Origin: Candidatus Bathyarchaeia archaeon
GTDB taxonomy: Archaea; Thermoproteota; Bathyarchaeia; Bathyarchaeales; Bathyarchaeaceae
Assembly: GCA_041653695.1 (NCBI GenBank)
Contig: JBAZEV010000002.1
Coordinates: forward strand, 1-50,528
Length of the DNA: 50,528 bases
Reading direction: 5' to 3'
Below are positions 26,571-50,528 of the stretch, one piece after another. The translations under genes were made by a program, and so were the position numbers. Position 1 is the first letter of the stretch. Every line of letters begins with the position of its first letter. The notes under the pieces are model-generated. The model was not told the origin of the DNA. It was given only the letters and a program-made list of their open reading frames with translations, and ran no database searches.

Positions 26571-28262
26571 TTAGACCTCCGCTTTAACTGGAATTGGATT
26601 TTGTGAATGTATGAATCCTTCTTGTATTGGGTAGTTCTCGTATTCGACTGTTACATAATCCTTGAATTTCCGCTGGATTTCACCTGTTGGATCAGCAGGC
26701 ATCTTTGTTTCAATGTCAACCCAGTAAGTTTTTCCGAAGACCTCTTTCAGGATTTCGCCATCTTTGGCTACAATCTCTCCGCCTTTAATTGTGTATGCCG
26801 TATTCTCAAACGCCTTTCTGGCTACAACAGATTCCTTAGCGATGTCAAGCCGTTCTGGGTTAATGTTAAAGATTGCAACATCAGCATCAGCTCCAACACC
26901 AAGGTGCCCTTTGTTTTTCATGCCTAACGCCTTTGCTGTTCCGGCACGTGTAACAACTGCAACCTCATACAGTGTATATTCGCGGTCAATTGTAGGTAGC
27001 AAGCTTTTTCGTTTTGCTCGTTTGTTTATTTTGTTAAAGATTTTCTCTCTTGCTTCGCGGCTGAATAACCACTCCAAAACCTTGGGGTAATTAGTGAACG
27101 GTCCACCGTTTGGATGGTCGGTTGTCATGAATATTTTCCATGGGTCTTTAACTAGAAGCGACATTTCAAGTCCGATTGACCATTGTATTGCATTTATCGG
27201 GCTTGTTCGTTTGTATCTGATTGGAACAATTCCACCAGATGTTTCTGCGCCTACATCATGGTTAATCCACTTGTTGCCAGTTAAGCTGGAAAGATAAAAC
27301 TGGGCTGGGCCATCAGCGGTCATCGTGGTTGTGTCTGTAAAGATTACCTGACCCGTATCCATTGTAACATGGTTGTGAGCATTCATATAATTTGACAATT
27401 CTTCTGCGCCAGAACCAAAAGATGTCCAATCATCACCACCGTATCCACAGAATTGGATATGAGTAATGTGGAGAATTGGTTTGTCATCTTTTGCTAAATC
27501 TTCTACTGCCTTCATTGTCTCTAGAGATGTTGCATAGTTACCAGGTTGTCCTAGCCTGTTTGTGTGAAGGTGTATCGTGTGAGGTAGATTAAGAAGTGTG
27601 TTGGCTTTGATTAATCCCCTAATGATTTCTCGTGGTGTTATTCCAAAGTTTGGTACAACATCATCGATACTTCGCATGTTGCGTCCAAAGCCCCAAGACT
27701 CCAAACCTCCAGGATTTACAACTTTAATAGCATACGCCCGTGAAGCTTTAAGCATCCACGCTAAGTGTGCAGCATTTTCTTTGATTAATCCATCTCTGAT
27801 GTTTTCTAGGCTGAACCACCAATCTCCTAACAGTGTGTATACACCTTTGTCTAACATTGGTGTATCAGCCAGTTCTTCGTGAACGTGACGTGCTTGCAGG
27901 GCAACAGTTGACGGAGCCATAGCGGTTGTGTAACCCATCTTGGAGTAACGGTAACCCGCTATGTATGTTGAGGGCAGTGAGCGCCCTGTTCCTAAATGTG
28001 TAATGGCTGTTTTAGCCACAACATCTTTGTAGTGGTCTTCTGGTCTCAGCATACGCGCTGTATCAACTTCACCACCCGCATAGTGACTGTGCATGTCAAC
28101 GCCTCCTGCCATTACGGTCAGGCCTGAAGCGTCAACGACTTCTGCTTTATCACTGACGGATTCTACAACTTTTCCGTCTCGGATGCAGATGTCCATTTTT
28201 TCTCCGTTTATTTTGTTCAGGGGGTCAAAGACGAAACCGTTTTTGATTATTAGTTCTTTCAT
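26571..28262 (-). CDS. fwdA: formylmethanofuran dehydrogenase subunit A (amidohydrolase fold)
   Basis: GGVDMHSHYAGG and HLHTNRLG metal-binding motifs, 563 aa, located between fwdD and fwdC. Confidence 0.88.
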   Translation of the reverse strand: MKELIIKNGFVFDPLNKINGEKMDICIRDGKVVESVSDKAEVVDASGLTVMAGGVDMHSHYAGGEVDTARMLRPEDHYKDVVAKTAITHLGTGRSLPSTYIAGYRYSKMGYTTAMAPSTVALQARHVHEELADTPMLDKGVYTLLGDWWFSLENIRDGLIKENAAHLAWMLKASRAYAIKVVNPGGLESWGFGRNMRSIDDVVPNFGITPREIIRGLIKANTLLNLPHTIHLHTNRLGQPGNYATSLETMKAVEDLAKDDKPILHITHIQFCGYGGDDWTSFGSGAEELSNYMNAHNHVTMDTGQVIFTDTTTMTADGPAQFYLSSLTGNKWINHDVGAETSGGIVPIRYKRTSPINAIQWSIGLEMSLLVKDPWKIFMTTDHPNGGPFTNYPKVLEWLFSREAREKIFNKINKRAKRKSLLPTIDREYTLYEVAVVTRAGTAKALGMKNKGHLGVGADADVAIFNINPERLDIAKESVVARKAFENTAYTIKGGEIVAKDGEILKEVFGKTYWVDIETKMPADPTGEIQRKFKDYVTVEYENYPIQEGFIHSQNPIPVKAEV

Positions 28263-28276
28263 TTCTCGTTTCCCTC

Positions 28277-28681
28277 TTACTTTGTTCTAAGCTCCGCAAG
28301 TACTTGGTCTATAGTTAGAACTTTTTCTGTGGGTGTTGGTTCGATTGTTCCAGTTACCCATTTTATTGACGGCATACCTGTTCCATGGGTTCGGTAATCA
28401 ACAATGTAGTTTACCCATGGACCATAACTGATGAAAACCCGTTTTGGATGTGGAAGTTCACGGGAAGTAACCGCCCGCAAAACTACGCTTCCAAATTGAG
28501 TGGTAAGTTTAACGTTGGAGTTTTCTTCAATGCCCAAAGTTTTCATGTCTTGGGCGTCAATTTTTACTTCGGTCACGTCTTTTATGTAAACATCTGATAA
28601 TTTTCCCATTTCTTTGCCTCTGCCTTGGTTAAGACTTCGACCGGTTAAAATCAAAACATCCATTTTTGGCAACATTATCAC
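28277..28681 (-). CDS. fwdD: formylmethanofuran dehydrogenase subunit D (molybdopterin dinucleotide-binding domain)
   Basis: The 134-aa product LILTGRSLNQGRGKE... is typical of FwdD/FmdD. It is the first gene of the fwdDAC-mch unit. Confidence 0.8.
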   Translation of the reverse strand: MIMLPKMDVLILTGRSLNQGRGKEMGKLSDVYIKDVTEVKIDAQDMKTLGIEENSNVKLTTQFGSVVLRAVTSRELPHPKRVFISYGPWVNYIVDYRTHGTGMPSIKWVTGTIEPTPTEKVLTIDQVLAELRTK

Positions 28682-37397: not shown

Positions 37398-40300
37398 TCA
37401 TTCCTCCCCTGATTTTTTCTTTTCTTTTGGTATGTTGAACATGAATGTACTACCTTTACCGGGTGTACTCTCAACCCAGATTTTTCCTCCAAGTTGTTCT
37501 ACAATCTTCTTACAGATTGATAACCCCGCACCAGTTCCTTCATACTTCTTTTCAGTAGGGGCACGTTCGAAAAGGTCGAAAATAATGGTCTGATATTTTT
37601 CTTCGATACCTATTCCGTTATCCCGAACCTTGAACAAGTGTTCGTTTTCATTTTCCTGATACAAAACTTCGATTTTCGGAGTTTTCGACTCGTTAAACTT
37701 TAATGCGTTGCTGATTAGGTTCATGAATAGTTGCTTCATCCAAACTCTTTGAACAAGCAGAACTGGGAGTTTATCAACAACTATCGTTGTGTTATGTTCT
37801 TTAATTGTCATTTCAAGGTCAAGCTGAATTTCTTCTAGTATCTTATTCAGGTCTGTTTGTTCAAATTCAGTATATTTTCGTCCAACACGTGAAAGAACCA
37901 GCAAATCTTCAATCAAAGTATCCATGTGGGATGCCGCGTTTATCATCCTGTTTAGGTAATCTTTACCTGTTTCATCGAGCCTTTGTGCATAATCTTCTAG
38001 TATGAACGAGCCAAATGACCGTATTGTTCTCAGAGGAGCCTTCAAGTCATGAGAAACAACATATGTATAACTTTCAAGTTCCTTGTTCGACTGTTCCAAC
38101 TGGTGCATAGCCGCATCTATTGCTAATTGTGCCCTCTTTCGTTCAGTGATGTCTCGGTCAATGCTTAATATCGCAGGTTTTTGTTGGTATTTTATAAGCC
38201 CTGTGCTAATTTCAATCGGAATTTTTTTTCCGTCTTTGGTTTTGTGTGCTGTTTCAAAGACCAGTTTTTTGTTTTTTTTCACTGATTCAATAAGACCATT
38301 TATTTGTTCCGGAGTTAGGGCATCATCGATATCTAGAATTCCCATCGACAGCAATTCTTCCCTAGAATAACCCAAATTCTTTCCAGCGGCGTCATTGACA
38401 TCAATGAATTTGCCATCAAAATCAATAACCCAGACTGAGTCATTCATTGTATTAATTATTGCTCGATACTTCTCTTCACTATCTAGAAGTGCCTCTTGAA
38501 CTCTCTTTTGTTCAGTCACGTCCCTGAAGAAACCTATTAAAAATTGTTGGTTTCCGATTTTCATGAGTCTGGAACTGATGTCACAATAGATTACTGTCTT
38601 GTCTTTTCTTAAAATTGGTATGTTTCTACTAATAGATATTTTTCTCTCAATCTGTTTCTGGAACTGTTCAAGTGCAAAAGCTAAATCTTCTTTGGGAATA
38701 ATGTCAACAACAGTCAATTTGGGTAACTCGTCAAACGAATAACCTAGAATTTCGTAAATTCTAGGGTTGCCAAAAGCAAATTTCCGTGTTTCAGGATCGG
38801 CAGCAAGAATGCCGTCCGTTGCTCCCTCAAAGATTGTCCTAAATTTTAGTAAACTTTCTTTCAGTTCATTTTCCATTTTTTTGCGAGCTGTTATATCAAC
38901 GGACATTTCAGATGCTGCAACGATTTTTCCATGTTCGTCTCTGATTGCAGTTGCATTAACTTCTAACCAGATGTCTTGACCGTCTGGAGTTTGGACCAAT
39001 TGTTCGTGAATAACCCAGTCTTTTCCGGTCTCAAAAACTTCTTTAACTCCACATCCATGACAAACATCTTCTAACTGATTGAGTGATGAGTAACACTGTT
39101 TTCCTTCTATTTCACCCAAATATTTCTTTAGAACCGCATTTGCCCATAAAACAACATAATCCTTCGATACAACTACAAGCCCAGCATTAATATTGCCTGT
39201 AATATTTTCAAGCATGTCTCGATCCTGACGTAGCGCTTCTTCCACTTCTTTACGGTCACTAATATCTATGGATAATATGAAAAGACCTTCAGGCACGGGC
39301 TCTATGCTGAGTTTAAACCACGCATTCTCACCTGTAGAAAACGTAAATTCATTTTCTATACTTGCCGACACACGTTTTTTCATGCATCTGGTGAAAACCG
39401 AAAACAATTCGGACTTTTCAATTCCGGGATAAACGTCCATAATTGTTTTACCCAAAAAATCTTTTTTAACCAAGCGTCCATGCTTTGCGGCGGCATCATT
39501 AACATATAGATAATGCCAATTATAATCAACAATCTGACAGCCTTCCATCATACTTTCAAGAGTGCTCCGGAAACGTTCCTCAGACTTCTTGAGCAATTCT
39601 TCCGCTTTTTTGCGGTCAGTGATGTCTACAATTAATCCTCTTGAGCCCGCGGGTCTATTTCCGCTAATAATAGGAGTTGCGTGTATAATAATCGGAAATG
39701 TGCTACCGTCTTTCTTCAATGCAGTGTACTCAATAAAACCTACATCAGTTCCAGTCAATATTTTAGTAATTACTTTCTTGGCTCTGTTGCGATCCTTTTC
39801 AATCAGCATCTGAAAAGCAGTCAAACCTTTATCAAAATCATTCTGAGAATAACCAAAACGTTCAAACGCAACATTATTCACGAATGTGAGTCGTCCAGCT
39901 AAATCCATTTCAAAAACAATTTCAGGAAGTAACTCACTTAACTCTCTAAACCGCTTCGCACTATCCTGAAGCGCATCTTGTGCTTTCTTTTGCTCTGTAA
40001 CATCCTTGAGAAATGCTACTATGTATTGTTGGTTTTCGATATTCATGAATTGCGCAGAGATATCAACATAGATTCTTGTTTTATCTTTTCTCAGAATGGT
40101 TTGGTTCCTGACCATTTGTAGTTTTCCTGCCAACTGTTTCTGGAATCGTTCAACGGTCAAAGGTATCTCATCTTTGGGAACATAGTCAAGAATAGTTGAT
40201 TTGAGCAATTCTTCAAGAGGAGCACCGGTTATTTTGACAATTCTGGAATTAGCGAGAACAAATTTCATTGTTTTAGGATCTATAGCAGCAATGCCATCAG

Positions 40301-41915
40301 TTGCGCCCTCAAAAATTGTTTTGAACTTTCCTAAACTATCTTGTAACTTAAGTTCAATTTTCTTGTGCTCAGTTACGTCTCGAAATATAGCTTGAACTAC
40401 TTTCTTATCTCCAAGTTCAATGATGTTAGCTGTTATTGCAGCAGTTCTGATTTCTCCACTTTTTGTAATAATTGGGGCTTCCAGAATATCCCCTTTATTT
40501 TCTTTGACGCGCTGTCTGAAAGCTCTGCCAACTTCATCATTGGATTCTGGGGGATGAAGAATCTGCGAATTTTTACCAATTATTTCTGATTTTGTTCTGT
40601 CAACTAATTTTGTGGCTGCACGGTTACAATCAACTATTATTCCTGTTTTGGCATTAACCAAGAAAATAGCGTCCATCGTCTCCTCAAACTGCCTCCTGTA
40701 GCGCTCTTCTGATTCTCTAAGTTTTTGTTCCACATTCTTGCGGTCAGTTATGTCCCGTGTTATGCCTATAATCTCGATTTTTCCATCTCTTTCAACGGGT
40801 ATGGTGGATGCTTCAACAAAAACTAGCGTCCCATCCTTTTTCATCAATTCTAACTCGTGGAGCCCACTTATTTCTCCATGCATGTTTGGCTTGAACGCTT
40901 CCATAAGCGCTGGTACAGACTCTGGTGGAACAAGAATCCCCAACATGTTTTTTCCGAGTAATTCTTCCTTCTTGTAACCCGTTAATTCCTCTGCCTTTTT
41001 GTTACCATCAAGAAAAGTTCCAGCAATATCCTGCACCCAAATGGCTTCAGGAGCATTATCCAAAAAATATTTGAACCGTTCTTCGGACTCTTGAAGTTTC
41101 TTTTCTACTTGTTTCTGGTCAGTAATATCATGAAATATACCGAGGATTGCTGGTTTATCTTTGTAGATTATGCGTGCAGTACTCAATTGAAACAGTTTCT
41201 TTTTTCCATCTTTTGTAACTGCCTCAATGCGATGCGGCTCAACAAACAAACCCTTTTTTAGTTTCTCAAGATTTTTTGCCAAAATGGTTTTGCTCTCAAC
41301 CGTGGTGGCATGGGTGTTAAGAAAACTTCTTCCCACAAGTTCCTCTTTTGAGAATCCCAGTGTCTCTTCGACTGATTGTGAAATCTCTACAATATTTCCG
41401 TTCATTTCTATGATGACAACCGGCTCTTCCATGATTTCTAATAACGTGTCCAAATGTTGTTTTGACTGTTTAAGTTCCTCTTCCTTGCGTATAATGTCCG
41501 TGAGGTCTTTGCCTGTTGCTTGTGCTCCCACGTAGTCTCCTGATTCGTCAAAGACTGCAACCCCGTTCCATGCTACGGTTCTAAACCCTTTAGGGCTCTT
41601 TACTCGGAGCATGAACCCTTTAACTTGGTTCCGATTTTCAATCAGGCTTTGAAGCGTAAAAACTGCCTTTTTTACATCTTCTAAGTGTAAATAATTTGTG
41701 AAATGAGTTCCCAAAATTTTTTTTCGTGGTTTACCCCAAAACTCAACGGCGGCATCGTTAACAAAATTAAACTTTCCATCTTTATCGATGCTTACAACAA
41801 GGTCATGCATTATTGTTAGCATAATGAGAAGGTAGTTGTCTCTCATTTTTTGTACGTAATCTTCCCTGATTGTCTGTGCCTTCTTTTTCAATGGTTTCAC
41901 CGTAAATTTATCCAA
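37398..41915 (-). CDS. giant multi-PAS sensor histidine kinase (at least nine PAS/PAC modules, HisKA and HATPase_c)
   Basis: Repeated ...DITERKxAEE/DVTEQKK... PAC ends are present. The H-box is VVSHDLKAPLRTI, and the N/G boxes are FMNLISNALKF, DNGIGI and GTGAGLSICKKIV. Confidence 0.9.
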   Translation of the reverse strand: MDKFTVKPLKKKAQTIREDYVQKMRDNYLLIMLTIMHDLVVSIDKDGKFNFVNDAAVEFWGKPRKKILGTHFTNYLHLEDVKKAVFTLQSLIENRNQVKGFMLRVKSPKGFRTVAWNGVAVFDESGDYVGAQATGKDLTDIIRKEEELKQSKQHLDTLLEIMEEPVVIIEMNGNIVEISQSVEETLGFSKEELVGRSFLNTHATTVESKTILAKNLEKLKKGLFVEPHRIEAVTKDGKKKLFQLSTARIIYKDKPAILGIFHDITDQKQVEKKLQESEERFKYFLDNAPEAIWVQDIAGTFLDGNKKAEELTGYKKEELLGKNMLGILVPPESVPALMEAFKPNMHGEISGLHELELMKKDGTLVFVEASTIPVERDGKIEIIGITRDITDRKNVEQKLRESEERYRRQFEETMDAIFLVNAKTGIIVDCNRAATKLVDRTKSEIIGKNSQILHPPESNDEVGRAFRQRVKENKGDILEAPIITKSGEIRTAAITANIIELGDKKVVQAIFRDVTEHKKIELKLQDSLGKFKTIFEGATDGIAAIDPKTMKFVLANSRIVKITGAPLEELLKSTILDYVPKDEIPLTVERFQKQLAGKLQMVRNQTILRKDKTRIYVDISAQFMNIENQQYIVAFLKDVTEQKKAQDALQDSAKRFRELSELLPEIVFEMDLAGRLTFVNNVAFERFGYSQNDFDKGLTAFQMLIEKDRNRAKKVITKILTGTDVGFIEYTALKKDGSTFPIIIHATPIISGNRPAGSRGLIVDITDRKKAEELLKKSEERFRSTLESMMEGCQIVDYNWHYLYVNDAAAKHGRLVKKDFLGKTIMDVYPGIEKSELFSVFTRCMKKRVSASIENEFTFSTGENAWFKLSIEPVPEGLFILSIDISDRKEVEEALRQDRDMLENITGNINAGLVVVSKDYVVLWANAVLKKYLGEIEGKQCYSSLNQLEDVCHGCGVKEVFETGKDWVIHEQLVQTPDGQDIWLEVNATAIRDEHGKIVAASEMSVDITARKKMENELKESLLKFRTIFEGATDGILAADPETRKFAFGNPRIYEILGYSFDELPKLTVVDIIPKEDLAFALEQFQKQIERKISISRNIPILRKDKTVIYCDISSRLMKIGNQQFLIGFFRDVTEQKRVQEALLDSEEKYRAIINTMNDSVWVIDFDGKFIDVNDAAGKNLGYSREELLSMGILDIDDALTPEQINGLIESVKKNKKLVFETAHKTKDGKKIPIEISTGLIKYQQKPAILSIDRDITERKRAQLAIDAAMHQLEQSNKELESYTYVVSHDLKAPLRTIRSFGSFILEDYAQRLDETGKDYLNRMINAASHMDTLIEDLLVLSRVGRKYTEFEQTDLNKILEEIQLDLEMTIKEHNTTIVVDKLPVLLVQRVWMKQLFMNLISNALKFNESKTPKIEVLYQENENEHLFKVRDNGIGIEEKYQTIIFDLFERAPTEKKYEGTGAGLSICKKIVEQLGGKIWVESTPGKGSTFMFNIPKEKKKSGEE

Positions 41916-42227
41916 CTGTTTACACCCATTTGTTACGAATCGCCAATGAGAGACCGAATGTACATTGACCCACTTTAATCATACCGTCCATGTGCCGTCA
42001 GAGATTATTTACTTTTCGGTTTAAATGCAATCCTATAATGCTTTTAAGTTCAACAATGAACGAGCCAAAAAGGCCGTATCATGAGCATGCACTGAAAACG
42101 TTGTTTTTTTCAAAACAAAGAACTAAAAAACCATAACATCTAAAAGTATAAATGACGCTGAGAACATCAACAAATAGTTCCAGACCTGTTTCGAATTGGG
42201 ATGAAACAAAACTAATTGGAGCAAAAA

Positions 42228-43187
42228 ATGATGGCAGACCTTGAATTATTAAAAAAAGAAGGTAACGACTTAATTGTTAAAGTTCCCGGACGAGAAGACC
42301 CCGTAAAAATAGAGGACACATACGCAGAAATGTTCCCAATGTGGGTTGGGCGCGTACTAATAACCGCTGCAAACGAAAAATGGGCACTAATCGCAGCAAA
42401 AACTGCCACCGGATTTGCATCTTCAATTATCATGTCGCCCGCTGAAGCATCACTTGAACGTCTTGCAGACCCAAAAGAAACACCAGATGGACGTCCAGGT
42501 GCATATATCCAGATTTACCACAGCTCACGAGCAGCCCTAAAAGGGCAAATGGCTGCAAGAATTGGACAATGTGTTATGACTTGCCCAACAACAGCAGTTT
42601 TTGACGCTTTACCCAAAGCAAGACGAAGAGCGAAAATCGGAAGAACCCTACGTGTTTTTGGAGACGGCTTCCAGAAAAGTGATGAAATCGCTGGAAGAAA
42701 AGTTTGGCGCATCCCCGTTATGGAAGGCGAATTTGTTATCGAAAACGATTTTGGAGTCATGAAAGCCGTTGCTGGTGGAGCGTTGTTGCTTTTGGCAAAA
42801 GATTGGGAAACGGGACTTAAAGCAACCGAAAACGCCGTAGATTCTATAGCCAAAAACGTTCGCGGAGCAGTTATGCCCTTTCCGGGTCACATATGCAGGT
42901 CTGGGTCAAAAGTTGGTTCAATTAATTATAAGCTTCCTGCGTCAACAAATCAGTTGTACTGTCCAACTCTTAAAAGTCAAGTGCCAGACACTAAACTGTC
43001 AGCCGACGTTAACAGCGTTTACGAGATTGTAATAAACACCTTGAACTTGGATGTCATGAAAAAAGCGTTGGCTGAAGGAATAAAAGCCGCAGTTAAAGTT
43101 CCTGGTATTGTAAAAATTACTGCACCAAACTATGGCGGTAAGCTTGGTCCGTATAAAGCCGAACTAAAAGAAGCTTTGAATCTATAA
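42228..43187 (+). CDS. ftr: formylmethanofuran--tetrahydromethanopterin N-formyltransferase
   Basis: IEDTYAEMFPMWVGRVLITAANEKWALIAAKTATGFASSII is the typical Ftr N-terminal core. The ATG at 42228 is preferred over the TTG at 42216. Confidence 0.85.
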   Translation: MMADLELLKKEGNDLIVKVPGREDPVKIEDTYAEMFPMWVGRVLITAANEKWALIAAKTATGFASSIIMSPAEASLERLADPKETPDGRPGAYIQIYHSSRAALKGQMAARIGQCVMTCPTTAVFDALPKARRRAKIGRTLRVFGDGFQKSDEIAGRKVWRIPVMEGEFVIENDFGVMKAVAGGALLLLAKDWETGLKATENAVDSIAKNVRGAVMPFPGHICRSGSKVGSINYKLPASTNQLYCPTLKSQVPDTKLSADVNSVYEIVINTLNLDVMKKALAEGIKAAVKVPGIVKITAPNYGGKLGPYKAELKEALNL

Positions 43188-43204: not shown

Positions 43205-44248
43205 TTATTTTATCCTTTTTATGTATTCTTTGCCTTTGCCTTCAGCAGAACCGACTAATATTCGGTAATGTTGTTGGCTGTTTTCTTTTTCGTTTACTTT
43301 TTCCAGTTTGCCTTTTACCTGTATTGTTTCCCCGTTTTCTGCTATGCTATCATACAGTGTCTCGTAGGCAACTACCTCGGTAACGGGGTGCTGCTGTTTG
43401 CCTTCAATGAATTCTGCATCCTTTATTTTGTAAACTGCTGGAAGAAACAGTGAATCCGTGTTGTCTACTACAACTGCTCGGATTGTAACTTGACCCATTG
43501 GTGTGAACGTTTTTTGTCCATACCTTTCCGTTAATTCACTCTCGAGTTTAACTGGGTGAATGGAAACCCACGTATCCTCAAACCGTCCCAGATTCCATTT
43601 TCTTTCATAGATTCTCGAAGCTTCGTTGGCTGTGACTGGGTAATCCATGGTCTTTTTGTTGCTCCACTCTTCAAGCTGTTTTCCTTCTAACCGTTTGATT
43701 GGAGCTTTAGAACCCTGTTCGGTTAACGCGTTTTTTAGTTTCCAACTGTTTTTTGTGCCATAAACGGTTATGTCAATGTCTGAAAACTTTGGGTTATGAA
43801 TATCTAAAAGAAGTGAACCTGTTACTCCAAACATTTCCTGCTTTATGCCGCTTATTTGTTCCAGTTGCTGGGTGACGTTGACCAGTTTTTGTTGCAGTGA
43901 ATCTAACTGCTTTGTTTCTCTTAGTTGTGCAAGTTTTTGTTCAGGTTTGTAATGTGTTTTAATGTTTTGGAGCGGAACCGCAGTTACCGTGATGTTGTCC
44001 ACGGGTGAATGGAAAATGTACTGTGGGTAATTTTGTTTAAGGAAGTTGAATGTTTCCAGCAGGTTAGGTATCGTATATTTTTGGAGTATTCTGCTGAATT
44101 TTTCTTTGTCTGTTCCCCAGTTTCCCGTTTGCGAAGGTACATACTTGATGTAAGAAACTACCCTGTCGGGGGGATGCATTGTTCCGACTACGCAGAAGAA
44201 GAATCCCTCCTTTGTTTGAAGAAAATCCCTGTCCCTGAAGCTTCTCAT
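43205..44248 (-). CDS. pol-beta nucleotidyltransferase with OB-like C-terminal domain, paralog A
   Basis: The GS-x11-DxD motif FGVTGSLLLDIHNPKFSDIDITVYG lies at 43772-43819. The N-terminal module is RDRDFLQTKEGFFFCVVG. The C-terminal beta-rich segment ends KGKLEKV...YRILVGS. Confidence 0.7.
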   Translation of the reverse strand: MRSFRDRDFLQTKEGFFFCVVGTMHPPDRVVSYIKYVPSQTGNWGTDKEKFSRILQKYTIPNLLETFNFLKQNYPQYIFHSPVDNITVTAVPLQNIKTHYKPEQKLAQLRETKQLDSLQQKLVNVTQQLEQISGIKQEMFGVTGSLLLDIHNPKFSDIDITVYGTKNSWKLKNALTEQGSKAPIKRLEGKQLEEWSNKKTMDYPVTANEASRIYERKWNLGRFEDTWVSIHPVKLESELTERYGQKTFTPMGQVTIRAVVVDNTDSLFLPAVYKIKDAEFIEGKQQHPVTEVVAYETLYDSIAENGETIQVKGKLEKVNEKENSQQHYRILVGSAEGKGKEYIKRIK

Positions 44249-44289
44249 ATGTGTTCAGGCCTCAAACAGCGGTGCCTCATACAACGAGT

Positions 44290-45003
44290 TTATGAATACG
44301 CAAAATAGGTTATCGCTATGGCAATCGCGTCATACAATCCATGCATCCACGCCAGTGCAGTGGTGTTCCGGTCTGTTCTTTGCCACATGTATCCCAGAAA
44401 TAGGCTGACAACCGTTACCGGGATTATAGACATCAAAGAGTTCAGTCCATGCAACAACCCGAACATTACTGACGCAACCACAAGACCAACTTTTGGTCCA
44501 TACGAATTTTCCAACCCTCTTTGAATAAAGCCCCTGAATGCTGCTTCTTCGGCTGGTCCAACTAACAAGAATGAGATTAAAAGTAACGCGATTAACTGCA
44601 GTGCATTTTGGGGTAATGTTGCGTCTAAAACTATGTCTGTTGATGGGTCTGGACCAACAATGGTTTCTTGGACTAACGCAATTGCTCCTCCGAGCCAAAG
44701 AAGTAGAACTGCTGCAATGGACAATATTATTATTGTTTTAATGTTTGGTTTTTTGAAGCCTAGCTGTTTTAGTCCTGCTTTGTGTTGTCTGGCGAGTAGT
44801 AACGTGATTGACAGTATTATCACTTCGTTTATTGGAAGCGATAATAATGCAGATGGAAACGGTAAGTTCTCTACGCCAAGTCCTGTTCCAAGCAGTATTA
44901 TTACTAGTATTATGCTGCCCACAATTAGTCCGACTGCTACAAATAGGTAACAGATGAATGCTGACTTGGCTTTCCAAAAAGGCGTGTTAGATGTGTTCTC
45001 CAT
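44290..45003 (-). CDS. CPBP-family (CAAX/Abi-type) intramembrane glutamic metalloprotease
   Basis: All three family motifs are intact: EEAAFRG, FGLLHG and MHGLYDA. Six to seven TM helices. Confidence 0.8.
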   Translation of the reverse strand: MENTSNTPFWKAKSAFICYLFVAVGLIVGSIILVIILLGTGLGVENLPFPSALLSLPINEVIILSITLLLARQHKAGLKQLGFKKPNIKTIIILSIAAVLLLWLGGAIALVQETIVGPDPSTDIVLDATLPQNALQLIALLLISFLLVGPAEEAAFRGFIQRGLENSYGPKVGLVVASVMFGLLHGLNSLMSIIPVTVVSLFLGYMWQRTDRNTTALAWMHGLYDAIAIAITYFAYS

Positions 45004-45212
45004 GTTTATCCCTTATTGTTGTTGGATGTAAATATGATGGTGTTTTTTCTATTAACAATTGCTTTTTCTGTGAATTTTTGAGTGCCCTCATTTTTGTTGT
45101 TTGCCTTTCTACTTTTAACATAGGAGATTAAACATCTTCAGGCAACTTTCTTTGTGAATGTTTATTCAACTCATTTTATTTTTATCCATTTTTCCTTCAA
45201 TTGTGGGGAAAT

Positions 45213-45220
45213 ATTTATAT
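45213..45220 (+). promoter_or_regulatory. TATA box for the AsnB-like gene (divergent from the CPBP gene)
   Basis: ATTTATAT lies about 47 nt upstream of the ATG at 45267. AAGGTG lies 7 nt upstream of that ATG. Confidence 0.4.
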
Positions 45221-45266
45221 GTAAAACTGTAATATTTTCAGTTTCTGTTGAATAAAGGTGTATTAT

Positions 45267-46310
45267 ATGAGCGCTAAAGAAAATGAAGCACTTTTAGCAA
45301 ACGTTGATGAAGTCACAGCCAAACTCCGCGATTTACTTGAAAAATCTGTAAAGAAAAACATGACCGAAGACATGCTCTTTTCCGGCGGCATAGACACCAG
45401 CATCCTTGCTACAATACTTTCAAAATATGTACGAATCAGAGGATTCACCTGTGCCTTCAAAGAAGCAAACCCATTAGACATCAAATTTGCAGACCTAATG
45501 GCTAAGCGGGTAAACATGGAACATCACCTGAATGCATTTGGTGCCGACCAAGTTTTTGAGGCTATTCCGCATGTGGTTAAAGTCTTGAACTCGTTTGACC
45601 CCATGGAAGTGCGAAACAGCATCACCATAACTATTGGGCTTAAGTACGCGAAATCTTTTGGCTCAACAAAACTGATTACAGGCGACGGCGCCGATGAACT
45701 GTTTGCTGGTTACCATATGTATTACCGTCATGTGGGTAACAAAGAAAAGTTAACTGAAATGTTACAGAAAATGTGGGCTATTATGGCGTTTTCTTCTGTG
45801 CCTCTTGGAAAATCGTTGGGCATCGAAGTACGTGCACCATTTTTGGACCCTGATGTGCAAAAGTTTGCTATGAGTATGGACCCAAGATACAATGTTCAAG
45901 AAGAACGCGGCGAAGTTTGGGGAAAATGGATTCTGCGCAAGGCATACGAGGATGTTTTGCCAACTGAGGTTCGGTGGCGGGACAAAAACCCAATTGAGGT
46001 CGGTTCTGGTACCACGATTTTGCCTACGTTTATGGCTCAGAAGATTTCGGATTCAGAGTTTGCCGCTAAAAAGAAGAAGATAATGGAAACAGACAACGTT
46101 ACTATCCGTGACAAAGAACAACTTGTTTACTACGAAGCATACCGCGAAGTTGTGGGAGTGCCTCACGCAGAAGACCCTGATGCGCGAACCTGTCCGCAGT
46201 GTAACTCGAACGTTGCCGAAAATGCTGTTGTCTGCAAAACCTGTGGAGCATATCCCATTGCTGCTGGCGGTAGGTCGATAACTAACGAGAATGCTTATTC
46301 TGACCAGTAA
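45267..46310 (+). CDS. asparagine-synthetase-type PP-loop ATP pyrophosphatase domain protein lacking the glutaminase domain, with a C-terminal zinc ribbon
   Basis: The PP-loop SGGIDTS lies at 45381-45401. The AsnB C-domain signatures ITGDGADELFAGY, APFLDPDV and KWILRKAYEDVLP are present. There is no N-terminal Cys2/Ntn domain. The protein ends CPQC-x11-CKTC. Confidence 0.75.
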   Translation: MSAKENEALLANVDEVTAKLRDLLEKSVKKNMTEDMLFSGGIDTSILATILSKYVRIRGFTCAFKEANPLDIKFADLMAKRVNMEHHLNAFGADQVFEAIPHVVKVLNSFDPMEVRNSITITIGLKYAKSFGSTKLITGDGADELFAGYHMYYRHVGNKEKLTEMLQKMWAIMAFSSVPLGKSLGIEVRAPFLDPDVQKFAMSMDPRYNVQEERGEVWGKWILRKAYEDVLPTEVRWRDKNPIEVGSGTTILPTFMAQKISDSEFAAKKKKIMETDNVTIRDKEQLVYYEAYREVVGVPHAEDPDARTCPQCNSNVAENAVVCKTCGAYPIAAGGRSITNENAYSDQ

Positions 46311-46329
46311 CTTTTTTTGTCTCATTTTT

Positions 46330-46362
46330 GGTGGGTTGGCTCCCACCCATGTTTTTGTTTTT
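46330..46362 (+). terminator. stem-loop plus T-run after the AsnB-like gene
   Basis: GGTGGG-ttggct-CCCACC is followed by atgtttttgttttt. Confidence 0.45.
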
Positions 46363-46412
46363 CAGGAAATGTTTAAAGCTTATAGTAATATGCATTTTTT
46401 GCTGTCTTTACT

Positions 46413-47456
46413 TTGAGGCTGGACTACGTGGCAACAAAAGATTGGATTCCCCGCGACGGTGAGACTCTTCTAACCAATGAAGGTTTTATTTTCTATGTTT
46501 TTGGGTATGAACACCCAGAAAACCGTGTTTTTGCGTTTCTGAAGTATATTCCCTCTGAGTATGCGCACCTGTTTCCTATTCGTTTTCTTAAACAGAAATG
46601 GAACCTAGACAGCAAGGAACTTTCTAGACCTGAAAAGCTTTACACGCCTCAAAATTACCAGAAGTTTTTGGAGACATTGCGTAACAGTTTTCCGCATTAC
46701 CTGTATTGCTGTCCGTTCCGGGGTAAAGAAGTTCTGAGTGTTCCGTTGAATCAGATTAAACGGGTGTATCTGCCTGGTGAATGTCTGCAGCGGATATTCA
46801 ACAAAGAGAGCAAGGATGCCATTCAGCAGGAGGCGGTTGATTTGGTTACGTTGTTATCAGAAGCCTCAAGTGTGCCTGTTGCGGAGTTTGGGATTCATGG
46901 TTCTGTTGGTTTGAATATGCATTCAGAGTATTCTGATATTGACCTTGTGGTTTATGGTTCTGAGAACTTCAAGAAGCTGGAAGATGCGGTTAACCGGTTA
47001 GCCGATGACGACGGCGTTTTTACGCATGTTTGTACCAAGAAGATTGATTTTGCTCGGCTGCATCGGGGACGTTACAACGACCGCCGTTTCGTGTATAATG
47101 CTGTACGAAAATATGATGAAATTGATGCTCCGCACGGTCAACTGAAGTACACACCTGTTAAACATGTTAACTTCAGCGCCGTGGTTGTAGACGACAAAGA
47201 GAACATGTTCCGTCCCGCAGTTTATCCAATCAAGAATTACCAACCAGACGATACTGATTCCGAGTTGTCTGCGGAACAGGTTCCAATTCATTTGTCATCG
47301 ATGATTGGTTATTACCGTAACGTTGCGCGGACTGGTGATGCTGTGAAGGTTTCGGGTAAGTTGGAGCGTATTGAGAACGTTGAAATCGGAGAAATAAGTT
47401 ATCACGTGGTTGTTGGTACCGCCACATGTGAAAAAGAGTATATTGAACCCCTTTAG
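46413..47456 (+). CDS. pol-beta nucleotidyltransferase with OB-like C-terminal domain, paralog B
   Basis: The motif [24 protein letters not shown] lies at 46899-46943. The architecture and length (347 aa) match paralog A. TTG start. Confidence 0.7.
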
Positions 47457-47457
47457 C

Positions 47458-48540
47458 TTGGTTATTGAGGGTGCTTTGTTGTTTAAGCTGCGCGACCGCG
47501 ACGCAATACTGACCAAAGACGGCATAATCTTTCGGGTTTACGGGTATCTTCACCCTAAAGGCGCGTACGTCTGCGACCCAGAGTATGCATCGCCAACGGT
47601 TTTTGCATCAACTAATTCCCGTGCGCGGCGTGGCAAAGACGCTGTTGTTTATTACAAGTTTTTTGCAGACGCGGGCATGAAACTGGTTTTGAACAAGTAT
47701 CCACAGTACACCGTTTTTTATGAACCCCTGCAAAAGTGTTTGGTGGGCGTTAACGAGCCAGACATCTTTGAAGTTCGTCAGCCTGAGGTTGGTTTGCAGA
47801 ATGTTCTTGCCCGAAAAGCGGATGATGTGTTGTTGAAAGCGTTTCATGATTTGTTTTCGCGGGTTTTGGCGCAGTCCAGCTTGAAACAAACCGATTTTGG
47901 GGTGTTTGGTTCTTTGTTACATGGTTTTTATCATCCAAGTTTTTCGGATTTGGATTTCACGGTTTATGGAAAAAAGCAACTGGATGAGCTATGTGAAACC
48001 CTTGATGTCCTTTACAAGGAAGACAAAACCTTGTGTAACGAGTTTGACCACATGAAATCTGTTGAATCTAAGGACTGGAAGTTTGTGAACTACAGCCTCA
48101 AGGAATATCTTTGGCATCAGCATCGGAAGATGATTTACCCCTATTTTGATTCAAAAGATGCTGGGCGCACCGTGAAAGCCGAGTTTGAGCCAGTGAAAAC
48201 GTGGGCAGAGAACGTTAATGAGTTCAACAATTTTGCAAGGATTTGTCATGTGAGTTGGATTAAAGCGGTTGTCGAGGTAACGGATGACAGTAATGCGCCG
48301 TTTATTCCTTCGGTTTACCCGATTGAAGTAAAAGAAATCATTGAAGGCCCAAAAGTTGACAACATAACACGCATATTCTCTTACATGGAAGAGTTCAGGC
48401 TCCAAGCAAAAAAAGGTGAAACCGTTCTGGTTGAAGGCAACCTCGAAAAAGTCATCGACGGCACAAACATTTACCACCAAATCACGTTAAGCTACGGTCA
48501 CCGCTACTACGAACAAACATTCAAAGTTATCAAGACATAG
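47458..48540 (+). CDS. pol-beta nucleotidyltransferase with OB-like C-terminal domain, paralog C
   Basis: The motif FGVFGSLLHGFYHPSFSDLDFTVYG lies at 47908-47955. The TTG at 47458 lies one nucleotide after the paralog B stop (TAG 47454-47456) and matches the N-terminal alignment (LRDRDAILTKDGIIFRVYG). Confidence 0.7.
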   Translation: MVIEGALLFKLRDRDAILTKDGIIFRVYGYLHPKGAYVCDPEYASPTVFASTNSRARRGKDAVVYYKFFADAGMKLVLNKYPQYTVFYEPLQKCLVGVNEPDIFEVRQPEVGLQNVLARKADDVLLKAFHDLFSRVLAQSSLKQTDFGVFGSLLHGFYHPSFSDLDFTVYGKKQLDELCETLDVLYKEDKTLCNEFDHMKSVESKDWKFVNYSLKEYLWHQHRKMIYPYFDSKDAGRTVKAEFEPVKTWAENVNEFNNFARICHVSWIKAVVEVTDDSNAPFIPSVYPIEVKEIIEGPKVDNITRIFSYMEEFRLQAKKGETVLVEGNLEKVIDGTNIYHQITLSYGHRYYEQTFKVIKT

Positions 48541-48583: not shown

Positions 48584-49063
48584 TTATTTGCTGTTCTGGA
48601 AACTCTGATCATTACATGTAGGATTCAAATCAATTTTTTCCCATGAGACGCTTCCCGAAGTATCAAATTTTGTTATGTTTATCTTCAATTTTGCCAATTC
48701 AGTTCTCAGTTTGTATATGCATTTTCCTACGTCATTCTTGTTACATAACATCGTGAAAACTATGTCATGGGTACCATATGTTTTCCAAAGAAATTTGACA
48801 TTAATTTGAGTTTTTAAAAATGCAATCGTTTTTTCAGTTTCTTCTATGTTTACATTAGCACCGATGACTATCGCTGAGAGATCTAACTTGTCAAAATTTG
48901 GGATTACCATGATTCTCTTGCGAATTATGCCTTCTTTTTCAAGTTTTCCAATTCTTCGATAGACCGTGTTACGTCCAGCATTACATAGTTTCGCCAACTC
49001 GTTGTAAGAGTATACACCATTGCACATGTATGACACAATCTGCCTATCTAGATAGTCAATCAT
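48584..49063 (-). CDS. Lrp/AsnC-family transcriptional regulator
   Basis: An N-terminal HTH (LDRQIVSYM...YNELAKLCNAGRNTVYRRIGKLEKEGIIRK) is followed by a RAM-like C-terminal domain. Confidence 0.8.
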   Translation of the reverse strand: MIDYLDRQIVSYMCNGVYSYNELAKLCNAGRNTVYRRIGKLEKEGIIRKRIMVIPNFDKLDLSAIVIGANVNIEETEKTIAFLKTQINVKFLWKTYGTHDIVFTMLCNKNDVGKCIYKLRTELAKLKINITKFDTSGSVSWEKIDLNPTCNDQSFQNSK

Positions 49064-49206: not shown

Positions 49207-49827
49207 TCATTCTCTCCCTGCGAGGATGTCATCAATGTTAGAGAATGGTGGATCTACACCTGTGGACGTTATTCTTCCTGTCGGGCATACTACATAGCAA
49301 TAATTACAATTCGCGCAGACTTCTTTCCTTTCTGGATAAATTGCGACACGCCTACTTGTTCCCCTGCCTACAAAACCGATGACGCTATCCCAATTTGCTT
49401 CAACACAACGTCGTATGCATAACCCGCAAAGGACACATTTTGTTGGTTCCATCTTTACCCTTGAACTGAACCGCGAGAGATCTGCGTTGTATTCAAGAGC
49501 TAATGCCCTAAGCTTGCCAGAGTCTTCTCCACTTGATACTGCAGCTAATTCTATTAGCGTTTTTCTTATTTTGTCTATTTTGGGAGACCTGGTTATTACC
49601 GTTAGGCCTTCCTCAACGGGATAGCAACATGCGGCTACTATACGTGTTCTTCCCCGTTTTTCAATTTCAACACTGCAAATGCAACAGGCACCGTAGAGCT
49701 CCAAGCCTTCATGATAACAAAGAGTTGGTATTTCAATGTCTAGAAGTTTTGCAGCCTCTAGAATAGTCATTTCTTCCTCTGCTTTAACCTCTTTTCCATC
49801 AATTTTTAAGGTGCATATTTGCTTCAT
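49207..49827 (-). CDS. 2Fe-2S plus 4Fe-4S ferredoxin-domain protein (HoxU / NuoG N-terminal-like)
   Basis: KIDGKEV...TILEAAK...IPTLCYH...CCICSVEI is followed by CxxCxxCxxxC clusters. The gene abuts the upstream NuoF-like gene with no gap. Confidence 0.75.
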   Translation of the reverse strand: MKQICTLKIDGKEVKAEEEMTILEAAKLLDIEIPTLCYHEGLELYGACCICSVEIEKRGRTRIVAACCYPVEEGLTVITRSPKIDKIRKTLIELAAVSSGEDSGKLRALALEYNADLSRFSSRVKMEPTKCVLCGLCIRRCVEANWDSVIGFVGRGTSRRVAIYPERKEVCANCNYCYVVCPTGRITSTGVDPPFSNIDDILAGRE

Positions 49828-50528
49828 TTATTTTCCTCCTTTGCGTATCGGTTTCATAGGTTTTGGTATAAACGAGGGAATTGGCTCACCTGAAAGTTTT
49901 TTCACCGCATCAAGATTGCACATCTCATAACAAGTTCCACATTTTACGCATTTTTCTTGGTTAATCCACTGGGCCTGACCTTTATCCCCCTCAACGGCTC
50001 CTACTGGGCATTCTTTGAAACATATTTGACACCCTTTACAGTTTTCAAAGTCAATAAAGTAAGTTATCAATTCCTTGCATGCCTTGGCTGGACAAATTTT
50101 CTTTTGTATATGCTGCTCCCATTCGTCTCTGAAGTATTTCAACGACGTGAGAACTGGGTTAGCGGCGGTTCTGCCTAACGCGCAAAGTGCAGCATACTGC
50201 ATCGTTTCGGCGATGTCTTCGATTGTTTGTATGTCCTTTGTTTTTCCTTTTCCTTCACAGATGTCTTTCAAAATCTTCGAAAGCACTCTCAATCCTTCAC
50301 GACAAGGAGTACACTTTCCGCAAGATTCCTCAAGAAGAAAATCGACAAAGTACCTTGCTGCGTCTACCATGCACGTTTCTTCGTCCATAACAACCATTCC
50401 TCCAGAGCCCATCATGGAGCCAACTTTGCTAAGTTCGTCGAAGTCTACTGGAAGGTCAAGCCACTCTTCTGAGATGAAACCTCCAGAAGGACCCCCAGTT
50501 TGCACAGCCTTGAATTTTTTGCCGCCTC
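49828..50528 (-). CDS. NuoF/HoxF-like NAD(P)H-binding flavoprotein subunit, C-terminal part (N-terminus outside the window)
   Basis: [21 protein letters not shown] and [12 protein letters not shown] (N3 cluster) are present, plus two extra C-terminal CxxCxxCxxxCP ferredoxin motifs. The ORF is open to the window edge. Confidence 0.85.

Follow-up and report, generated by a model that had tools for sequence, protein, structure and literature searches.

Three proteins encoded between positions 43205 and 48540 of a 50,528-nucleotide stretch of DNA from Candidatus Bathyarchaeia archaeon (contig JBAZEV010000002.1, positions 1 to 50,528; hereafter the window) belong to an undescribed archaeal family of four subfamilies, which is a new architecture within a known enzyme superfamily. 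The proteins, here called paralogs A, B and C, are, on their motifs and a predicted structure, members of the pol-beta nucleotidyltransferase (NTase) superfamily, each with a C-terminal OB fold, and we refer to the family as NTase-OB. For its chemistry we tentatively favour, at a probability of about one in three, a CitX-like reaction in which, at least for subfamily D, a group would be transferred from a triphosphate donor made by CitG to a hydroxyl. This reading is put forward because CitG is the sole neighbour with a mechanistic precedent for partnership with an NTase.

The three paralogs share 30-34% identity in alignments that run end to end, and an N-terminal R-D...G..H-P, the active-site G-S...S-D-x-D and the C-terminal F-x-P-x-x-Y and G-x-L-E are invariant among them. 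A profile built from A, B and C matched 1351 cluster representatives (clusters at 50% identity), with E<1e-30 for 350, and nearly all matches were about 350 amino acids (aa) long and aligned over their full length; end-to-end matches at this significance place the relatedness of the three far beyond chance. Over 265 members, G160, G163, S164 and D175 are conserved in 100%, D177 in 98% and E236, the probable third carboxylate, in 92%, and the same active-site conservation was found within each of the four subfamilies. Judged by these residues, overall and by subfamily, all the paralogs look catalytically competent and none looks like a decayed pseudoenzyme. An initial annotation, made from the DNA letters of the window, had described three paralogs with intact active sites, and our results agree with it on this point and on the positions of the motifs; the x(11) spacer that it gave for all three motifs is right for A and C, and in B the spacer is x(10).

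Assignment to a named family was tried with Pfam, NCBIfam and PADLOC and yielded only a generic NTase motif, so that the description of the family as uncharacterised stands, with no Pfam or NCBIfam family, PDB relative or defence-system model to its name. Pfam detects only a short NTP_transf_2/Polbeta motif in A, B and C: for NTP_transf_2 (PF01909, cut-off 21), B (27.1 bits) and C (21.4 bits) score above the threshold and A (15.6 bits) below it, yet A is a full-length paralog with an intact motif. No NCBIfam model matched any of the three, and PDB sequence and profile searches returned nothing below E 0.1, only a motif-level alignment to kanamycin NTase. The AlphaFold2 model of B (44-sequence alignment, pLDDT 92.1, pTM 0.88) begins with a beta-rich N-terminal domain (~1-120), followed by a minimal NTase core (~121-240) and then by a beta barrel (~241-347), the strands of which, at residues 244-346, have high pLDDT. 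Searches of the PDB and BFVD with this model in Foldseek gave nothing at E<=0.001 and no global fold match. The barrel matched E. coli SSB (probability 0.99, target TM-score 0.56), mitochondrial SSB, M. tuberculosis SSB, phage SSBs and the N-domain of LysRS, in agreement with the OB fold proposed in the initial annotation; a resemblance to TiaS, proposed alongside it, went no further than the possession of an OB fold, since TiaS was absent from the PDB sequence and fold searches. The core matched PAP, Pla1, GLD-2/TENT2, Cid1, TUT4, TUT7 and CutA, weakly in each case (E ~0.01-0.06, query TM-score ~0.2, ~110-150 residues covered). The N-terminal domain is basic (median isoelectric point, pI, ~9), and the OB domain, in which Y271 is conserved, is acidic in A, B and C (median pI ~5.1-5.3), with a median of 7.0 in D.

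The 265 members fall into four clusters, A to D, each with a consistent position in its loci. Subfamily D has no gene in the window, and neither it nor the link to a CitG-like protein appeared in the initial annotation. B alone has 1258 homologs, with ~80% identity within its Bathyarchaeia clade. Among the matches listed, the closest homologs of the window genes all come from metagenome-assembled genomes (MAGs) of Bathyarchaeota, and the named members only from uncultured Bathyarchaeota, from Thermoproteota or 'Crenarchaeota' MAGs and from Asgard archaea (Freya-, Jord-, Borr-, Baldr-, Hel-, Hod-, Wukong-, Prometh- and Ran-archaea); neither a methanogen nor any cultured organism is among them. 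Existing annotations of members read 'predicted nucleotidyltransferase' or 'hypothetical' only. Two loci with bacterial labels, L019 (DATKLC010000104.1, 'Krumholzibacteriaceae bacterium') and L029 (CAZPNF010000233.1, 'uncultured bacterium'), are typical Bathyarchaeia NTase-OB loci with a neighbouring formyltransferase gene, and their labels are probably binning or labelling errors.

Open reading frame (ORF) listing and translation gave seven genes in the region, and the five genes of the cluster and both flanking genes lie at the coordinates stated for them. The genes and elements are listed here with their strands.
42216-43187, plus strand: formylmethanofuran:tetrahydromethanopterin (H4MPT) formyltransferase (FTR), NCBIfam NF002554 at 400.9 bits
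43186-43209, no strand assigned: hairpin AATAAACCCA...TGGGTTTATT between the convergent FTR and A genes
43205-44248, minus strand: paralog A, 347 aa, subfamily A, convergent with FTR, with G144-S145...D157-I-D159 intact
43772-43819, minus strand: active-site motif of A, pol-beta type, G-S-x11-D-I-D, kept in 96-98 of 98 subfamily A members
44290-45003, minus strand: CPBP/Rce1-like intramembrane protease, 237 aa, Pfam PF02517 at 65.1 bits against a cut-off of 22.4
45258/45267-46310, plus strand: AsnB-like PP-loop enzyme consisting of the C-domain only, 347 aa from the ATG at 45267, Pfam Asn_synthase
46330-46362, plus strand: terminator-like hairpin GGTGGG...CCCACC with T-runs, 3' of the AsnB-like gene
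46372-46385, plus strand: TATA-like TTTAAAGCTTATAG ahead of B
46413-47456, plus strand: paralog B, 347 aa, subfamily B; the alternative start GTG 46428 gives 342 aa
46899-46943, plus strand: active-site motif of B, G-S-x10-D-I-D (G163, S164, D175, D177; putative third carboxylate E236)
~47476-48540, plus strand: paralog C, ~354 aa, subfamily C, in an ORF that opens at 47410
47908-47955, plus strand: active-site motif of C, G-S-x11-D-L-D
48584-49063, minus strand: Lrp/AsnC-like helix-turn-helix (HTH) regulator, Pfam HTH_24 at 30.2 bits

NTase-OB genes and their neighbours were examined in a survey of 61 loci from genomes and assemblies, and the order B then C on the same strand was the sole arrangement common to Bathyarchaeia, other Thermoproteota and Asgard archaea. 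The two ORFs overlap or abut in most loci, and B-C is an ancient gene pair. The abutting or overlapping of the genes across phyla suggests that B and C are subunits of one heteromer; B stands without an adjacent C in L149 and L150. In the window the stop of B is the TAG at 47454-47456 and C starts within ~20 nucleotides (nt) of it, so that the coupling of the two genes proposed in the initial annotation is retained. Its start for C, the TTG at 47458, gives way to the TTG at 47476 or 47479 as the most likely one, since a Shine-Dalgarno sequence, GAGGGTG, lies just upstream at 47467-47473. The neighbours of B-C in other non-Bathyarchaeum lineages (V4R, PfkB, AAA-vWA, P-type ATPase, MgtE, SIS, FBPase, Ham1) share no theme.

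Subfamily D of the Bathyarchaeia has as its neighbour a true CitG-family protein (PF01874, E 3.5e-70): of the 18 loci in which a D gene is clustered, ~15 have CitG divergent from it; in the exceptions CitG is missing (L022, L024) or an ORF of no identified family intervenes (L023). A reverse search with a CitG-like alignment against metagenome contigs gave 29 loci in which the upstream flank was at least 3.5 kb long, and D was present in 21 of these and any family member in 22. In one locus of the clade of the window (L063, same contig as L012), where FTR, A, CPBP, AsnB-like and B follow in this order, the gene for C is absent and CitG takes its place, on the same strand as B and 188 nt downstream of it (L063:4423-6580). 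Coenzyme A (CoA) genes are also found here: PPAT (179 bits; cut-off 104) and a GHMP kinase that resembles pantoate kinase lie beside D-CitG in three loci (L069:1-6948, L079:2064-8034, L148:1-12119), together with DUF763 and DUF1786 proteins. PPAT makes dephospho-CoA, the canonical substrate of CitG. A gene for an ECF-S-like membrane protein of ~300 aa separates CitG from D in L020 (1472-2434), L129 (1061-1963) and ~30 other loci; the best NCBIfam match of this protein, to folate-family FolT, reaches 32 bits where the cut-off is 60.

CitG and MdcB join ATP and the adenosine 2'-OH of dephospho-CoA into a 5''-triphosphoribosyl compound, which the NTase-type enzymes CitX and MdcG transfer to a serine hydroxyl with release of pyrophosphate. 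By analogy, the CitG-like enzyme would supply a 5''-triphosphoribosyl donor at least to D and probably to the whole paralog set, and the NTase would treat this compound as its 'NTP' and join it through a phosphodiester to a hydroxyl, releasing pyrophosphate; ordinary nucleoside triphosphates (NTPs) may be alternative donors for B-C. Candidate acceptors would be the end of a tRNA or other RNA, as the Asgard neighbourhoods suggest, a serine of a protein, or an intermediate of a one-carbon (C1) cofactor, as those of Bathyarchaeia suggest. Several results weigh against such a reaction. Alignment to E. coli CitX with hhalign gave a probability of 0.7%, and the CitX structure 7dcm was not among the top 50 Foldseek matches. 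The nearest matches to the core fold are RNA-specific poly(A) and uridylyl transferases, and the conserved Asgard neighbour is a tRNA kinase or GluRS, both of which would suit an RNA enzyme with ordinary NTPs as its substrates just as well. The window has no CitG, which was also not found within 6 kb of B-C in the Asgard loci or in L027 and L028, 7-8 of the 29 CitG loci have no family member nearby, and adjacency within the single class Bathyarchaeia is partly inherited synteny. Neither a CitD/MdcC-like acceptor nor genes for subunits of citrate lyase or malonate decarboxylase were found among the conserved neighbours; around CitG and D there are only ECF-S-like, HTH (Lrs14-like), MobB, DUF1786, DUF763, PPAT and Cdv genes, with none for a protein like acyl carrier protein (ACP).

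The main rival, tentative itself and of nearly equal weight, is that the proteins are conventional RNA or tRNA NTases, in which a B-C heteromer would transfer nucleoside monophosphates (NMPs) from NTPs onto RNA, A and D would have other specificities, and the RNA would be held by the OB fold together with the basic domain at the N-terminus. The fold matches of core and barrel, the pI of the N-terminal domain and the housekeeping-like identity of ~70-80% among B orthologs across the clade are in its favour, as are the Asgard loci. There, a KTI12/PSTK-family tRNA kinase is encoded directly upstream of B on the same strand in L044, L047, L048, L146, L149 and L150, overlapping it or separated by up to 19 nt (in L145 the kinase is convergent), and these kinases have only 35-39% mutual identity, so that their adjacency to B has survived deep divergence. 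SepSecS, SelB and SelD lie near B in most of these loci; selenocysteine islands with PSTK-like, aSelB, SepSecS and SelD-like genes together with B were seen at L044:5105-12715, L146:7130-17029, L149:1-8107 and L150:1-8149. A Baldrarchaeia locus (L144:4643-10099) has an operon-like run of DUF72, GluRS (tRNA-synt_1c), JAB/MPN, B and C with overlapping gene ends, and genes for GlxRS and a tRNA-intron endonuclease lie near B-C in Hodarchaeota and Promethearchaeota. A link to tRNA, one of the routes suggested in the initial annotation, gains some support from the kinase and GluRS genes directly upstream of B. Against an RNA substrate stand the acidic OB domain of A, B and C, the lack of a PAP-associated or central domain and of the body and tail of a CCA enzyme, the weakness of the fold matches and the lack, in the window, of any gene for a tRNA or other known RNA at or close to the cluster; the CitG, PPAT and C1 neighbours of Bathyarchaeia would also be left unexplained. 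A combination of these two leading readings, in which, in Bathyarchaeia and Asgard archaea, a hetero-oligomer of up to four paralogs would place a CitG-made 5''-phosphoribosyl (dephospho-CoA-like) group on a tRNA or RNA end or on a protein, seems improbable; if true, it would be a new RNA or protein modification, and would tie the metabolism of CoA either to translation (PSTK, GluRS) or to that of C1 units.

Three further readings are less likely than these two. Since a CitG homolog, orf7, is found in the H4MPT-linked gene islands of methylotrophs, the CitG-like enzyme and the NTase might together make a ribosyl-phosphodiester side chain for a C1 carrier, H4MPT-like or of another kind (the alpha-ribosyl-5-phosphate-hydroxyglutarate unit would be one example), with different phosphodiester-linked groups added by the different paralogs. 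The orf7 gene has been listed as an 'H4MPT-linked C1 transfer pathway protein' (PMC3615186). This route is unlikely, although the C1 context in Bathyarchaeia speaks for it. FTR is present in 25 of the 61 loci and the window, beside subfamily A in nearly all of them, and A has FTR as its neighbour in 26 loci. FwdD/B/A adjoin CitG in 8, and D-B-A-C is adjoined in L028 by a true Mer, which scores 440 bits where the cut-off is 276. Close to the paralog set, L039 has a gene of the Mer BLAST cluster and L134 has weaker Mer-like matches (26-27% identity). MobB and MoaA/C genes occur in the wider surroundings, and the weak best match of the ECF-S-like protein is to a folate-family S component. The window carries part of the methanofuran/H4MPT C1 gene set; FwdA-like (50% identity to a Bathyarchaeia FwdA cluster) and FwdD-like genes were seen at 26571-28681, ~15 kb upstream of the cluster. 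Even so, no C1 genes stand beside the Asgard and other non-Bathyarchaeia B-C loci surveyed, no member from a methanogen or cultured H4MPT user was among the matches listed, a small-molecule route would not easily accommodate four active paralogs and an OB fold, and the context in Bathyarchaeia may be a mere syntenic C1 island. No literature was found on COG1665, on CitG with methanopterin or on CitG/CitX in archaea. We also doubt, more strongly, that the proteins modify their neighbours by AMPylation or UMPylation in the manner of GlnE, GlnD or MntA, with FTR regulated by A, CitG by D and PSTK or GluRS by B. A minimal KNTase/MNT-type core, an acidic OB fold that could bind protein and a preferred enzyme neighbour for each subfamily would suit this role; no HEPN or other known partner and no match to defence or toxin-antitoxin models were found, and the same subfamily has different neighbours in different phyla.

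Least probable of all is a five-gene pathway or immunity module formed by A, CPBP, AsnB-like, B and C, which might for instance nucleotidylate and amidate a peptide, a small molecule or a tRNA base. PP-loop enzymes are common in tRNA modification, which speaks for such a module, as do the order of the five genes, kept across the clade of the window down to ~60-70% protein identity, and the CPBP gene, which precedes A by 41 nt in the same orientation and may be co-transcribed with it. However, the AsnB-like gene is present between A and B in 23 of the 61 loci and CPBP in 18, all of high identity to the window, and neither was found at the more distant Bathyarchaeia, Thermoproteota or Asgard loci surveyed, which keep the NTase set without them; even some close relatives lack CPBP (L001, L011, L016) or the AsnB-like gene (L017, L018, L026). 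The AsnB-like protein is also more conserved (80-86%) than its neighbours, like an independent housekeeping enzyme, and the hairpin and T-runs that follow its gene, with a TATA-like element then ahead of B, indicate that AsnB-like and B-C are probably separate transcription units. No Lrp gene was found next to C at this position in L001-L005. AsnB-like, CPBP and Lrp are therefore clade-specific neighbours and not part of the conserved unit. The refuting condition set in the initial annotation, neighbours that are not conserved across genomes, applies to the five-gene cluster, which we do not regard as one system, and does not apply to the NTase set; the flanking regulator is not a feature of the cluster, and an immunity module has no support from PADLOC, the defence models of which gave only a motif-level match of 15 bits to PDC-S09 and nothing for A, C, CPBP, AsnB-like or CitG. 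A defence island or toxin-antitoxin system was rejected on the same result, with no HEPN partner and with neighbours that are housekeeping or metabolic.

The identities that the initial annotation gave to CPBP and the AsnB-like enzyme are nevertheless sound, and its regulator is retained as Lrp-like. The AsnB-like protein has the PP-loop FSGGIDTS (PF00733, E 4e-44) and aligns to E. coli AsnB only over the C-domain, residues 202-512, with starts at ~191-202 across alignments, and it is from this that we conclude that the glutaminase domain is missing; the DNA upstream of its gene is intergenic, followed by CPBP on the other strand, and its start is most likely the ATG at 45267. Its score against the NCBIfam AsnB model, 166 bits with a cut-off of 499, shows that it is not an AsnB equivalog. 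A C-terminal zinc ribbon is present as described earlier, with the spacing CPQC-x10-CKTC in place of x11, and the orthologs all come from Bathyarchaeota, at ~80% identity. The motifs EEAAFRG, FGLLHG and HGLYDA are all found in the CPBP translation. For the Lrp-like protein the HTH_24 score is above threshold; the NCBIfam models AsnC (27.7 bits) and LysM align over ~110-120 residues, far below their cut-offs, and there was no match to Pfam AsnC_trans_reg. The hairpin between FTR and A is likely a bidirectional terminator. Elsewhere in the window, a 1505-aa multi-PAS sensor histidine kinase (37398-41915) adjoins FTR. The same kinase gene recurs in L001, a related contig, where two response regulators accompany it, one of them with a TackOD1 domain. 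Two cysteine-rich ORFs at 49207-50505 on the minus strand resemble, from their translations, 2Fe-2S/4Fe-4S electron-transfer subunits of the NuoG-N-terminal and NuoF-C-terminal types. A creatininase-family gene that the window lacks lies 3' of C in 11 loci of its clade (L001:16101-16985, L002:10194-10943, L004:10160-10909, among others), with FMN-reductase-like and UbiX-type flavoprotein genes directly after it in L002 and L004 and several genes further on in L001.

The closest known systems compare with these proteins as follows. Like CitX and MdcG, the family has in Bathyarchaeia an NTase-type enzyme beside a CitG-family gene (D, and once B, in L063), with PPAT nearby, and the chemistry of CitX and MdcG is plausible for a G-S...D-x-D active site. 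Unlike them, NTase-OB proteins are about twice as large, have extra N-terminal and OB domains, occur as four paralogs and have no detectable similarity to CitX in sequence or fold, and their loci have no ACP-like acceptor or citrate lyase/malonate decarboxylase genes, with CitG itself absent from the window and the Asgard loci. The PAP, TUTase and class I CCA enzymes (Cid1, GLD-2/TENT2, Trf4, PAP) provide the best partial fold matches to the core, have the motif 'G-S ... S-D-[IL]-D' and would fit the tRNA-related Asgard neighbours. NTase-OB proteins differ from them in having no PAP-associated or central domain and no CCA neck, body or tail (there is no Pfam match outside the motif), and have instead a beta domain at the N-terminus and an OB fold at the C-terminus. 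The minimal NTases of PF01909, such as kanamycin NTase and the MNT of MNT-HEPN, are the sole Pfam family match, but they are ~100-250 aa long and lack the two flanking beta-rich domains, and NTase-OB has no HEPN partner. TiaS, the tRNA-Ile2 agmatidine synthetase, is archaeal and contains an OB fold; it has a TCKD kinase-like domain and a zinc ribbon, whereas NTase-OB is a predicted pol-beta NTase with no zinc ribbon. E. coli AsnB has the PP-loop synthetase domain with SGGxDS in common with the AsnB-like protein, which differs in having no N-terminal Ntn glutaminase domain and in its C-terminal zinc ribbon.

Examination of the NTase-OB proteins exposes a well-conserved family of several paralogs, catalytically intact as far as its residues tell, that is absent from Pfam, NCBIfam and the PDB. 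Its host lineages, so far only uncultured, matter for carbon cycling and for the origin of eukaryotes. Its gene neighbourhoods hold two strong partners, a CitG-type triphosphoribosyl transferase and members of the tRNA(Sec) kinase family, and both point to chemistry that is directly testable with recombinant proteins. If the link to CitG is functional, it would take CitG/CitX-type chemistry for the first time beyond citrate lyase and malonate decarboxylase; should the link to tRNA be functional, the family would represent a new archaeal tRNA-processing activity.

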